Counted from the stretch's first letter, positions 25,240-30,686 are shown. The stretch is 64,000 bases of DNA from Curvularia clavata (GCA_023920165.1 CP089275.1:2108001-2172000); one strand, 5' to 3'. The notes: a model not told the origin generated them from the sequence alone. Numbers and translations are program-made.

Positions 25240-26012
25240 CTAAGCAGAAGCCTCGAAAGCGGTAGGGAAGCGGCGGATGTTCTCAGCAAGGTTACCCTTG
25301 TTGCGGAGGAACTGAACGTAGGCACCGTCGATCTTGACCTTACCCTCCTGGCGCTGCTGGACGTACTCCTCGCGCTTGAGAGGGGTGAAACCCCAGTTCT
25401 TGGAGACGATGATCTTCTGGCGACCAGGGAACTGAGAATAGTTAGTTTCGAAGTACTAGTAAAATTACAGAAAATGAGCGTACCTTGTACTGGCAACGCC
25501 TCAGAGCCTCGAGAGCAATGGCGCGGTTAGAGTCCCTAGTCCTGACGGACATGAGGATCTGACCAATGTTGACACGAGCGACAAGACCGTTGGGCTTGCC
25601 GAACGCACCACGCATACCGGTTTGCAATCTATCGGCACCAGCGCACGACAACATCTTGTTGATACGGACGACGTGGTAGGGGTGGACACGGACACGGAGA
25701 TGGAAAGATTCCTTTCCTCCGCTCTTGACCATGTACTTGTTGGCGCAAATACGGGCGGCTTCGAGGGCCTCAGAGGACAGCTGCTCGTACTCGTTGGAGA
25801 CCAAGTGGATGCAGAGCGGGAAGTCGTCTACGTTGGCCTTCTTGCGACCGAGGTCGAAGATGCGGATCTTGGCATCGGGTACACCACGGTTGAACCTGCT
25901 CTTGGGGTACTGTAACCCAGTCAGCCTATTGTCCTCCTCTCGCTGTATATCCAGTCTGACGTACGGGCTTGTTCTTGCAGTAGCGGTAGCAACGGGCGGG
26001 ACGGCGGGCCAT
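25240..26012 (-). CDS. RPL10: 60S ribosomal protein L10 (uL16)
   Basis: Exons 26012-25965, 25909-25484 and 25431-25240. Reads [28 protein letters not shown]...[25 protein letters not shown]...[16 protein letters not shown]. Confidence 0.98.
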
Positions 26013-26026
26013 TGTGACGGTTCTTC

Positions 26027-26147
26027 CTGCTTTGAAATCAATGAGCGGATGTCCGGAGAGAGTCGAAAACGAGAGCGAGTGCGCAAACTGATGAAGAGGT
26101 CAGTCACACGTCTGCCAGGGGATCTGAATGCGACAACCGTACCTTAC
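26027..26147 (-). other. Putative 5'-UTR intron of RPL10, possibly a nested [D5,6] stwintron
   Basis: Minus strand: GTAAG|GTACGG...GACTGAC...CAG|TTTGCG...GCTCAT...AAGCAG|GAAGAACCGTCACAATG. Confidence 0.5.
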
Positions 26148-26722
26148 CCTTTATTTGAGTGTTAGTGGGGAGGTGTCAGAGGGCAAAGTCGAAGGAAGTC
26201 GTCAGTCGTGATTGCTAATCACAATATTGCGCACCACACGCCAAGACCCGGTTAAGCGAGCGCCTTGATTTCCAAGCAGGCACCGCCACCCAAGCGCAAT
26301 CCTGGGGATCTGTGGCAAACGCAACGCGAACATTACGCTATTTGTGGTTCTCTGAAGCAATGGTCTGCATATTGCATATCTCTATGATATCAAAAGGGTA
26401 ATCTTCATCCCTCAAATTTTGGCTGAAGCGACACCCTGCTTGGAATTCTTATCCCTAAGCGCGTATAACGTTCATGAAACATATGCTCATCAACGTCAAA
26501 TGCCGAGTCATCAAATCCGTAGCTGCCTTGTTAGACACACGCTATCCTGAAGATGCAGTTCGTGCACAGCCAAGCTGGTCATAATGAGTCACATCACATA
26601 AAGCATGGTCGGACGTCAAATGGCTCATGAATTTGGGTCATTCATTGGATATCATCAGGGGCCGAAGCATACGCCACACCCTAGGTATCATGTCTAACTT
26701 TTTTCCCACGTGCTACACCGCT

Positions 26723-27370
26723 CTAGTTCTCAGTGTTGGTGCTCAGGATGTCAGAGTCACCTGCAGAAAGTTAGTGGACCGCGTATGTGTTGAGAAGCCA
26801 AGTAAAAACGTACCAGCGTCGATGATGGACATGACAGAGCAGCGGAAGAGCTTACCGCAAGCGGTTCCAAGCTCAATCTTCAACAAAGTTAGTTGATAGC
26901 TCTCCATGGCCGTGTTCGGACCAATTCTCAGAGCCAGCCCTCGGAGATACCCAGTGCAATCGAACCCCGTTCTTGTCTGATTCTACCCTGAACATATAGG
27001 TCGAGAACTTGTGAACTGATAGATAGGCAATTCAATCGCACGGGTATCTCGTCGTTAGGCAATGAGAGTGGGTGGAGTGTATACGTACGTTGTTTCCAGA
27101 GAAGTGGTGGACAGAGGTCTTGGAAAGCATGGCGTAGTCTGGTGTCATGTTAGCAATGCTTTTGAAATAGTGAATATGAATTTATTTACACTCAAGCTCA
27201 GACTTCCTCAGAGGAGGAGTGTTGCCGGCAATGATGACGAGCTTGGCCTTGCCAGTGCGGAGGCTCTTGAGGGTGGACTTGTATCCGAGGGTGACCTTAC
27301 CGGACTTCATCACAAGCGCCAGGCGCGAGTTGATGGAGTCGGCGGTTCTCTTGCTCTTCTTGGGGGCCAT
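26723..27370 (-). CDS. RPL30: 60S ribosomal protein L30 (eL30, L7Ae family)
   Basis: Exons 27370-27190, 27138-27089, 26877-26814 and 26760-26723. Introns of 51, 211 and 53 nt. Reads MAPKKSK...[13 protein letters not shown]...RKSELEYYAMLSKT...[33 protein letters not shown]. Confidence 0.98.
26937..27060 (-). other. Intronic RNA stem-loop closed by a kink-turn motif (RPL30 intron 2)
   Basis: 5' arm GCCU-AAC-GAC-GAGAUACCC-GUGCGAUUGAA pairs with 3' arm UUCGAUUGCAC-U-GGGUAUCUC-CGA-GGGC. Confidence 0.65.
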
Positions 27371-27884
27371 CGTTGCACGTAGGAAGTTGTCTGGGGAATT
27401 CCTAAGGGTGTTGTTGTGCTCCGGTCGTGAGTTGTGGATGTTCAAAGGTAGCGCGCTCACAAAATTCTGTGCGCCAGCCGACGCCAAGATTTGCACTAGC
27501 AGGCTAAAATCATGACTAAACCACGTTCGCGAGCCAGTCGTTTTTTTTAGCAAAGCTCCACCCCAACACCATGACCATCGTCCAAGTTTGAAGTTTGACA
27601 AGCAGCATCATTTTGGCGTTGGCTTCGAAGCAAGAAGACTCAACAGCAGCGCGATATGGTGATACACCTGCGTATCCTGCCTTATTCCTGGAACTAGTTG
27701 CACAAAGTCACCTCATTGGAAACAGAACATTTCGACATGGCTACTAAGACAAAGTGCTGTTGCTTACACAACGCTGCCCAACATGGTATCATTGCACTAT
27801 AATCCATTGTTACATAACAACGGCCGTGAACTCCTCCCCGCATGAAAGCTGCAAGGCTTCACCAAAACGCACCAAGAATCTCAT

Positions 27885-30686
27885 CTATGCTGCCGCCCTT
27901 TGCGTCTGTCTCCCTCCCCGAGTTGGAGCTGCAACTGCACCAGGTCGATTGAGAGTGTACTTTGCAAAAGCTCTCGCCAGTGCCTTCTTTGCGCTAACTT
28001 TCTGCGAGCCAACAAAAGAGTCGACCGCAACAGCAATTGCACGGTCAATATCTACTGATGCACAGTAGTCGGATAGGCGCATCTTGCAGAATGCTTCTGC
28101 GATACGTAATATAGCCTCAAGATGACGGACCTGGTGATATGAGCAAGTGATACGAGTTTTGAGAATTTCAACTTACAGTGATAGGATAGGCTCCCGTTGC
28201 CATGGACTCTCGACGCATGTCTGCAAAGAGACGCGCAATCTTATCTTGCTCAATCTGATAGAGCTTGGGCCTACACTTTTCCCGGGCATAGAGAATGTAC
28301 TTCCTCAAAAGTTCTTGGGGAATCTCGCCCTCTTTAGGTGGGGCGTCTCCATCAACTTCCATTTGATCTTCACCATTTTGTGATGCTTTAGCCTTGTCGG
28401 AATAACCGTAGGCTGAATTGACAAGTGGGTGTGCTCGGCCATGGGAGTTGACAACGAACTTGGCCAGGCGCTCATCCTCTGCCGGATCGACAGTGTCACG
28501 CACAACGCACAAAATGTCGAATCGAGACAGAATAGGCTCCGTCAGCTCAACGTTTTGTGAAAAAGGAATTGTGGAGTTGTAACGTCCACCAATTGGGTTG
28601 GCCGCAGCTACGATAGAACAACGCGCTTGAAGCGTTGTGACGATACCGGCTTTCGAGATGGAGATGGTCTGCTGCTCCATAGCCTCGTGAATGGACGTAC
28701 GATCTTGGTCGTTCATCTTGTCAAACTCGTCAATGAGACAAGTTCCCTTATCCGCAAGCACTAAGGCGCCTCCTTCCAAGGTCCATTCGCTCGTCATAGG
28801 ATCACGACGAACGGAAGCTGTGAGACCAACCGCGGAAGCACCCTGACCGGTTGCAAAGACTGCACGATGAGCCGTCTTCTCGACATACTTTAAGATCTGA
28901 GATTTGGCGGTACCAGGATCTCCAAGGAGAAGCACGTTAATATCGCCACGAATGGAATGGCGACCAGGTGCCTCTTTACTGACGCCTCCAAAGAGTGAAA
29001 GCGCTACAGCGGTCTTGATGTCAGTGTGTCCATAGATGCTGGGCGCAATAGAGCCGATAATCTTGTCAACGATGCGCGGGTCTTTAGACAGTCGTCGGAT
29101 CTCCTTCTCGTCATCCTCAGTTAGCCGGAAACCTGCCAGTTGGTCGTGAGACTTGACGATGTAGTTTGCTTCAAGAATGGTCGCAAAGACGGGGAATCCG
29201 TTCTTGTTGTTCAGAGCGGCGTCGTAGTTATTGCGGTAAATACCCGTGACTTCTATCTCTTCTCCAGGTTTGGCAGAATCAATCAAGTCCCAAAGAAGAA
29301 TAACCTCGCGGTGACGCGGCAAACGACCGGCTGGAACAGTTCCTGGGGACTCCTGTAGGGTGAGCTTCTGGTAGTTGCGGTAGACCGTTCGCTCAGAGTT
29401 GACTGTGAAGGGACCGCGTGACTGGCAGTTTTGACAGAAGGAGATTTTGACCTCAACATTAGAATCTTGGTGGAACGGACCAAGCGTGACACCGCACTTG
29501 GTACAGTCAAACTTGACATACTTCAGTTGCGGGAAAACTCCGCTTCGGCGAGTGACTACTCCACTGACGCGAACAAGACTGTTCAGATGTGACTGACGGA
29601 GCTGGCGGAGGGTGTACTGAACGGGTACATCGGTGATGCGAACATGGATCTCAGAGTGGATACGCTCGTAATCTGGGTAGTGAAGGAGTGTCACTTCCAT
29701 GGCGACTTGGTCAAAGATTTTGAGCATTTCGGTAGGTGTATTGGCAAGCCAGTAGGCTAGAGTAGCCTTTTGCTCTGCCAGATGATCGAAGGACACCTCC
29801 AGTGACTCTGCGTTGACCTCACCCAATGTTCGGATACGGGCACCATAGACTGAATGGCCATGCTCGTCCGTGTACTCGGTCAGAAAAGACTTGAACTCTC
29901 GCGCAATGGTCCGGGCGACTTGAGGTTGAGCAACCCAATCGGTCAACGTATTAGCTTTCACGTCGGTGAGCGCCTCGAGCGTCAATTCCTCATTCATGAT
30001 ATCGTCAGCCATGTCCATGTCGTCGTCTTCATCATAACGGTGTCTTCGAACACGACGGCGTCCCATCAGACCTGCCAAGCCGTCTTGCTCATCTTCATCC
30101 GGCAGAAAGGCAGCAGGCATACGACGTCTAGCCTCTCTGTCGCGGGCGTTCAGGCTCGCATCGAGTTTTCGCCTCTCAGCAAGACTGAGCTCTTCGTATT
30201 CGCCTTCATCGTCGATTCCCTGGCCCTCATAGGCGTCGTTCTCACGAGCTGCGTAGTCATTCTCGAAATCATCCGCAAACAAGTCGATTCCCTCGGCCTC
30301 TTCTGCGTCCTCGTCCAGGTCGTCAACATCGCGAATAATGTCGTCATCATCGAGCATATCCGCATCTTCCTCGTTTGGTAGCACAGGCGGGGACGAGGCC
30401 ATGGCTGTTGGCTGTCAGCTATTTGTTGTTTGTTGTTTCCTTTGTTTGCGCAGCACTTACGACTGGACGGAGGGTGCACCGCTGAGGAAGGAAGGTCTTC
30501 GTCTCTCGCACGCTTGTTGCTTCTACTAGCAGGGGCAGCGCCCCGATTTCCGGAGGACATGTTGGATCGAAGTGGTGGTGGAGGTGAACTGAGTCTGTTA
30601 GTATTGTGGTATCGGCGGTAAAGAGGGGCTCAGGGTCGGCGCTCGGTCTACGACTCATGCGTACGTGTGTGGAATACACACCTCAT
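27885..30686 (-). CDS. MCM2: DNA replication licensing factor MCM2
   Basis: Exons 30686-30682, 30588-30461, 30404-28177 and 28130-27885. Acidic N-terminus, Zn finger CTKC...CQNC, Walker A GDPGTAKSQ, IDEFDKM, arginine finger SRFD and PITVRHLEA. Confidence 0.97.

Follow-up and report, generated by a model that had tools for sequence, protein, structure and literature searches.

Tandem k-turn hairpins beside the branch point of RPL30 intron 2 are candidate L30 autoregulatory sites in Curvularia clavata and related sequences

L30 is the textbook example of a eukaryotic ribosomal protein that acts on the splicing of its own transcript; to our knowledge, budding yeast, in which the site and the 5' splice site overlap, is the one organism where this autoregulation has been dissected. 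According to the accessible text of the papers cited here, L30 is an L7Ae-family protein that binds k-turns in rRNA helix 58, its ribosomal site in eukaryotes, as well as in its own pre-mRNA and mRNA (PMC3706390). Yeast L30 represses the recruitment of U2 snRNP on its own transcript (Vilardell & Warner and Macias et al. 2008, cited in PMC4695336), and in S. pombe, Rpl30-1 represses the splicing of rpl30-2 (PMC4695336). The base pair 3b,3n is U.G in the solved k-turn from the L30e-mRNA complex of yeast (Chao & Williamson 2004, cited in PMC5061560) and A.G in Kt-58 of H. marismortui, and Mg2+ by itself suffices to fold a k-turn that has 3n = G or 3b = C, which is not so for the U4 and box C/D k-turns (PMC5061560). 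In the latter RNAs, box C reads AUGAUGY and box D reads CUGA (PMC5640933).

Under the name 'rpl30 motif', Li & Breaker 2017 described 47 examples, from 26 Pezizomycotina species including Leptosphaeria maculans and Aspergillus nidulans, of a large hairpin whose internal loop is purine-rich and conserved and which has a long unstructured region on its 5' side; L30 genes carry it mostly in their 5' UTRs, and it was put forward as a site of L30 autoregulation (PMC5640933, accessible text). A hairpin in L30 genes of the same fungal group, together with the idea of autoregulation, is already published in that work, and the proposal made below is partly anticipated (PMC5640933, same portion of the text). 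In a limited literature search, the name of this motif was found only in Li & Breaker 2017; the same limited search found no work treating L30, k-turn, intron, fungi and autoregulation together, no published description of k-turns in RPL30 intron 2, of the tandem layout or of the branch-point position, and nothing on this element in connection with RPL30 intron retention or NMD in filamentous genera.

Here, we analysed a stretch of 64,000 nucleotides of Curvularia clavata DNA (GCA_023920165.1, CP089275.1:2108001-2172000), referred to as the window. Its minus strand carries an RPL30 gene with two adjacent k-turn hairpins in the second intron (KT1 and KT2) and a third one at the start codon (KT0). 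The features, with positions counted from the first letter of the window, are the following:

26723-27370, minus strand: coding region of RPL30 (eL30) in four exons; the spliced product is the 110-aa L30
27367-27426, minus strand: KT0, k-turn hairpin over the 5' UTR and start codon, recognised by sequence in 12 sequences
27190-27370, minus strand: coding sequence of exon 1
27139-27189, minus strand: intron 1, 51 nt
27089-27138, minus strand: exon 2
26878-27088, minus strand: intron 2, 211 nt, phase 0, GUACGU...AAG
26937-27060, minus strand: KT1, k-turn-closed long hairpin, 124 nt, recognised by its sequence, its fold and the core in relatives
26899-26934, minus strand: KT2, second k-turn hairpin, 2 nt downstream of KT1
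26888-26893, minus strand: predicted branch-point motif ACUAAC, branch A at 26889, a pattern match to CURAY
26814-26877, minus strand: exon 3
26761-26813, minus strand: intron 3, 53 nt
26723-26760, minus strand: exon 4

The gene is adjoined by an open frame at 25442-26143 (minus strand), which we take from its reading to be ribosomal protein uL16/L10. Upstream of RPL30, another open frame at 27885-28172 (minus strand) contains VDSFVGSQKVSAKKALARAFAKY and is presumably the C-terminal part of an MCM-type protein.

Intron 2 had been flagged in the initial annotation as about four times longer than the other introns of the gene, and the lengths of introns 1 and 3 (51 and 53 nt) bear this out. In phase 0, the reading frame of a transcript retaining intron 2 runs into a stop after 18 codons. 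The whole intron has a predicted fold with a z of -3.12, which none of 200 shuffles equalled. Rfam 15 has no family matching the region of intron 2, and a scan of positions 26000-28000 with E up to 10 gave 4 weak chance matches, none of them inside intron 2.

KT1, the hairpin to which the initial annotation had drawn attention, has 28 nt of intron 2 ahead of it and 59 nt behind it. It had been described as a stem of about 20 bp with two G-U pairs and one bulge, with k-turn geometry at its base, and the window agrees on both points. The stem arms GAGAUACCC (27042-27050) and GGGUAUCUC (26944-26952) are 100% complementary, and beyond them the stem goes on in GUGCGAUUGAA/UUCGAUUGCAC, where two of the pairs are G-U and one U is bulged, the NC arm reaching about 20 bp or more. 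The bulged strand reads GCCU-AAC-GA-C (GCCU at 27057-27060, AAC at 27054-27056, GA at 27052-27053 and C at 27051) and the opposite strand C-GA-GGGC (C at 26943, GA at 26941-26942 and GGGC at 26937-26940), exactly as described. As in a standard k-turn, a Watson-Crick C helix (GCCU/GGGC) is followed by a 3-nt bulge (AAC), and position 3b is C (3b,3n = C.C in the window), in agreement with one of the two k-turn folding rules. The sense strand of KT1 folds at -44.0 kcal/mol (z -3.62, 1/200 shuffles equal) and the antisense strand at -35.0 (z -1.57, 13/200 shuffles equal). RNAfold, which the initial annotation had suggested as a check, returned the hairpin on the sense strand but drew two Watson-Crick C-G pairs across the core in place of the kinked core, and since these pairs are preferred by the program, an unkinked form may compete. 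The 128 kb of the window (both strands) contain 7 matches to a strict k-turn-hairpin pattern, so KT1 as a single sequence is not beyond chance; we judge it real because of its conservation in orthologous introns. No second copy of the KT1 arm was found in the 64-kb window with up to 3 mismatches allowed.

Relatives were collected from metagenome contigs scanned with the 60-aa exon-1 peptide, the best 80 of 146 relative-encoding stretches being kept. A tblastn and splice-pattern search yielded 38 loci with an intron exactly at the intron-2 position of the window, that is, after ...SGNN and before IELG..., and these loci plus the window gave 32 unique introns of 80-211 nt. A k-turn hairpin, KT2, is present near the 3' end in all 32 of them. 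In the window, it reads GCUC-UGA-GA-A-UUGGUC ... GGCCAU-G-GA-GAGC, and its consensus is (A/G)CCC-NNN-GA-(A/U)-RAAGUC ... GACUUU-G-GA-GGG(U). KT2 is the more conserved, universal member of the tandem pair, and KT1 is its variable partner. The initial annotation had put forward the flagged hairpin as the element; its conserved k-turn core stands, but it is the less conserved of the two, and KT2 lies outside the interval that had been given.

The alignment of KT2 comprised 24 of the 32 introns, with the near-copies L003, L004, L023, L025, L026, L046 and L061 left out along with L028, which has a 117-nt insertion. Standard pairs form in 95.4% of the cells of this alignment, 6 of the 10 pairs show compensatory change with both sides changed, and none of 500 shuffles reached any of five measures; as a control, sliding the partner by 1-3 columns lowered pairing to 20-54%. 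Position 3n is G in 24/24 aligned sequences, in agreement with the other k-turn folding rule, and 3b,3n is A.G or U.G (A.G in the window). A covariance model of KT2 derived from these 24 sequences matches 41 of the best 80 loci with E of 8e-8 or better, including L001, L011, L057 and L079, which have no intron in the set of 32. It has a single match in the 64-kb window, at 26899-26934 (E 1.4e-8), and scores nothing at KT1. Rfam 15 being without it, this model is a compact annotation tool for a conserved regulatory RNA. Branch points were called by the CURAY pattern in 27 of the 32 introns, with CUUAC-like motifs at similar places in the other five. The last base of KT2 lies about 10 nt from the predicted branch A in the window, and the distance from the GGAGRG end at the 3' end of KT2 to the predicted branch A is 11-24 nt (median 14) in those 27 introns.

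Several further pairings were seen in these introns. The 117-nt insertion of L028 (L028:420-572) is almost perfectly paired and located in the NC arm of KT2, and KT1 is missing from this intron; in intron 2, a k-turn-capped arm has therefore gained a long extension more than once. In the RNAfold prediction for intron 2 of L024, L027, L061 and L069 (e.g., L024:1835-1924), the upstream k-turn has its 3' strand, GGCUCUGGAG, paired with CUCUAGAGCC, a segment overlapping KT2's 5' C-stem; the resulting hairpin would exclude both k-turns and could have the role of a switch. Another alternative, which RNAfold draws in several introns, would join the intron's first 39 nt, counted from the 5' splice site, to KT2's 3' strand; it was rejected, the summed duplex energy being -281.1 against -280.5 +/- 10.1 in shuffles.

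Upstream of KT2, we scanned for k-turns in which both strands carry GA, no fewer than 3 of the 4 C-stem pairs form and no fewer than 5 of the 6 NC-stem pairs do. This automatic scan found hairpins in 16 of the 32 unique introns (19 matches), compared with 1.18 +/- 1.05 introns, and at most 5, in 200 dinucleotide shuffles. Ten of the 16 are of the window (KT1) type: 3n is C or U, and 3b is C except in L025 and L026, where it is U. The other six (L024, L027, L061, L066, L067 and L069) carry an upstream copy of KT2 type instead, which the KT2 model also finds with E of 5e-6 to 0.01. Beyond these 16, introns L002-L004 and L074 and locus L001 have a hairpin of KT1 type whose stem contains a bulge of one base. 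An upstream k-turn is absent in 12/32 unique introns, so KT1 is dispensable in many lineages; in L012, L013, L021 and L023, only the 5' half-site of the upstream k-turn is kept.

The KT1-type set consists of 14 unique sequences, in which the pairs were counted by script. The bulge is AAC in 11 of them, GAU in two and AAU in one, the third bulge base being U in L008, L009 and L025; position 3b is C in 13/14, and L025 has U.U at 3b,3n, closer to box C/D. Tandem GA is in register on both strands in all 14, most of which were selected for GA. The C-stem pairs -1 to -3 are paired throughout (C-G, U-A or U.G), pair 4b-4n is C-G in 6 sequences, G-C in 5 and A-U in 3, and pair 6b-6n is formed in 14/14 by four pair types, counts that are partly circular because the scan that chose 9 of the 14 sequences demands pairs. 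The shortest hairpins, of 32-35 nt and in many cases with UUCG as the loop, are those of L005, L008, L009, L015, L016, L025 and L046; L014 and L074 have intermediate ones (44-49 nt), and the window and L001-L004 have the longest (121-126 nt). The NC arm ranges freely from 5 bp to more than 30 bp, and MAFFT brought only 6 pairs of the short hairpins into register. The spacing between KT1 and KT2, read by eye, is 2-5 nt in the 14 sequences. Among the five long forms, the interiors differ, with 8 of 37 predicted pairs compensatory, and each folds with a z of -3.3 to -3.9. These compensatory stem changes in relatives and the better fold of the sense strand agree with the selection at the RNA level that the G-U pairs had been said to fit. 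Conservation in orthologous introns, also named beforehand as a check, holds for the GA/GA core with compensatory stems in the 14 unique sequences but not for the long stem, which close relatives alone possess (L001-L004 beside the window and, perhaps, one contig of run X8). On this sequence evidence, KT1 is a conserved sense-strand k-turn RNA in L30's own intron.

The contig of run X8 matches KT1 at both flanks but has unrecognised letters in place of 26950-27037, which hints at a relative with a different KT1 interior. In intron 2, run X3 departs from the window at two positions only, 27073 and 27074, both of them outside KT1, and is thus too close to inform on this hairpin. At the apex of KT1 (26975-27010, minus strand), a block GGUAGAAU...ACAAGAACG is kept in the window, L002 and L003, and loosely in L004, while the stems beneath it change; L001 lacks it.

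KT0 has the form ACC-G-GA-GCAC ... GUGC-AAC-GA-U-GG, where AUG is the start codon, and is found in 12 sequences (the window, L001-L004, L010, L011, L028, L044, L049, L074 and L079) and absent in 14 other loci compared. Its third C-stem pair varies (A-U, U-A or G-C), its 3b,3n is U.G, and it has the AAC bulge and the GA/GA core in common with KT1; its fold alone is not better than shuffles (z -0.73). The position and topology of KT0 presumably mirror those of the yeast L30 site. The initial annotation had placed the feedback element at a different, fully intronic location. KT1 does lie inside intron 2, away from the 5' splice site, but a yeast-like KT0 is also present at the 5' UTR and AUG, so that the intronic k-turns add to a yeast-type site rather than replace it. 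Locus L010 (L010:365-800) has KT0 but lacks an intron where intron 2 would be, and the KT2 model has no match in it; the start-codon and the intronic controls can thus occur separately.

Contigs from runs X11 and X5 join the exons across intron 1 (27138/27190), intron 2 (26877/27089) and intron 3 (26758/26812). The classification of these runs as RNA is an automatic guess, and the exon-exon joints indicate that both contain spliced RNA. In each of the two runs, another contig of 270 or 271 nt, from 26848 to 27117 or 27118, is unspliced through intron 2, carries both exon-intron junctions and shows 0 differences from the window. Contig depth, a poor measure of retention, is 101.5 for the unspliced contig versus 1429.3 for the spliced joint in X11, and 455.7 versus 1025 in X5. 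No unspliced contig was found for introns 1 or 3 in these runs, whose contigs join across both. A long structured intron 2 that is spliced slowly, without feedback, may be an alternative source of the unspliced contigs. Separately, run X3 contains, in record 8 (26812-27380), a second, divergent RPL30 at lower depth beside the near-identical gene; it has no introns at the positions of introns 1 and 2 and bears insertions of 295 and 67 letters in exon 1, and it probably comes from a second organism.

L30 probably limits its own output by blocking the removal of intron 2, in the manner known from baker's yeast, though with the site placed elsewhere. We lean towards the reading that KT1 and KT2 are tandem candidate L30 sites which hinder the use of the branch point, leaving intron 2 retained. 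Both are read as L30 sites because each agrees with one of the rules for self-folding, unlike U4 and C/D sites. That L30 would be their ligand, and that its binding would block U2, is suggested by analogy with the known systems, and the spacing of 2-5 nt suggests that the two hairpins may act together. U2 snRNP contacts the region just upstream of the branch point. Free L30 in excess of the demand of ribosome assembly would bind KT1 and KT2, and the RNA thus occupied just upstream of the branch point would hinder recognition of the latter by U2 snRNP; retained intron 2 would then lead to the early stop codon, with no L30 made, and the transcript would presumably be degraded by NMD. KT0, at the start codon, could provide an added translational control, as in yeast. 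A wider scheme is possible, although we offer it tentatively: a three-site k-turn circuit in filamentous ascomycetes, in which KT0 would act on translation and KT1 and KT2 on splicing, with cooperative, switch-like binding of L30, KT2 being the ancestral fungal L30 sensor and the budding-yeast form at the 5' splice site derived after intron loss. KT1 and KT2 would explain why RPL30 intron 2 stays long where most introns are of about 50 nt. Tandem k-turns beside a branch point, of which KT2 is present in every orthologous intron sampled, offer a natural test of whether a protein bound to a k-turn can act at the branch site itself to block the recruitment of U2, and of whether multiple sites sharpen L30 feedback.

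Some properties of KT1 would also fit a division of labour in which only KT2 (and KT0) are L30 sites and KT1 is an accessory, compacting the intron, presenting KT2 or binding another L7Ae-family protein, such as Snu13. The universality of KT2 against the absence of KT1 from 12 of the 32 introns points this way, as do the distinct 3b,3n of KT1 (C.C or C.U), its being missed by the KT2 model, the free length of its NC arm and, in L008, L009 and L025, the U at the third bulge base, which together with the U.U of L025 looks like drift towards a C/D-like core. We nevertheless consider this unlikely. The AAC bulge and GA/GA core of KT1 match those of KT0, a yeast-like site in the same gene, KT1 and KT2 are tightly spaced, and the six introns with a clear KT2-type copy upstream suggest that the upstream slot serves the same ligand; as for Snu13, 3b = C is a signature of self-folding k-turns, unlike U4 or C/D sites.

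Two other readings take KT1 out of L30 control altogether. The core ACGACGA...CCGA resembles boxes C and D with U replaced by C, a ribosomal protein gene is the host, and intronic k-loop RNAs have been described, in the accessible part of a preprint (10.64898/2026.08.03.742641), as suppressing excision of their host intron; KT1 could on these grounds be an intron-encoded stable small RNA, either a box C/D-like snoRNA or a kink-loop RNA bound by 15.5K/Snu13, that is released or suppresses excision. This is very improbable, given that intron 2 has no Rfam match with E up to 10, that KT1 is paired from the k-turn to the apex in the predicted fold, leaving no single-stranded guide, that it is only 32-35 nt long with a UUCG loop in relatives, that its 3b,3n in the window is C.C and not U.U, and that the unspliced contigs, carrying both exon junctions, represent pre-mRNA and not a released RNA. 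The specific reading as a box C/D snoRNA was rejected: the motifs at the box positions are ACGACGA and CCGA, and there is no guide region, no Rfam match and only a short hairpin in relatives. The notion that KT1 is a functionless chance inverted repeat or small transposon remnant that lengthened the intron would account for the interior of the long stem being wholly different between close relatives, and the bare k-turn pattern is not rare, with its 7 strict matches in 128 kb. It is hardly credible in view of the recurrence of the same core at the same place, with compensatory changes, in divergent orthologous introns, the better fold of the sense than of the antisense strand, and the lack of a second copy of the arm in the 64-kb window at 3 mismatches or fewer.

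Read as tandem candidate L30 sites, KT1 and KT2 can be set against the described elements. The 'rpl30 motif', compared by description only, fits KT0 better than KT1 or KT2, and the accessible text on it mentions no k-turn, tandem arrangement, proximity to a branch point or intron retention (PMC5640933). With box C/D and U4 k-turns and the mammalian intronic kink-loop RNAs, KT1 shares, as far as the available portions of the sources go, the character of an intronic k-turn that may suppress excision of the host intron. It differs from box C/D and kink-loop RNAs in having no canonical boxes, guide or Rfam match and a self-folding 3b,3n, and its expected ligand is the product of the host gene itself. 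KT2, with A.G or U.G at 3b,3n and 3n = G throughout, is like the helix 58 k-turn, for which the A.G of Kt-58 and not the rRNA of this organism is the comparator, and it is consistent with mimicry of the rRNA site. The likeness to the k-turn of S. cerevisiae RPL30 (formerly L32) extends to a place in the gene's own transcript, a GA/GA core in a purine-rich loop, L30 as the proposed ligand, a proposed block of U2 recruitment and a build-up of unspliced RNA. KT1 does not have the yeast-type span of 5' UTR, start codon and 5' splice site, and KT1 and KT2 are capped on the NC arm, which we take to be the strand topology opposite to that of the yeast site. At 3b,3n, the yeast U.G stands against C.C in KT1 and A.G in KT2. 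KT0 matches the yeast site in its position at the 5' UTR and AUG and in its U.G at 3b,3n; KT1 and KT2 differ from it in lying inside a downstream intron, two in tandem, where their neighbour is the branch point instead of the 5' splice site.
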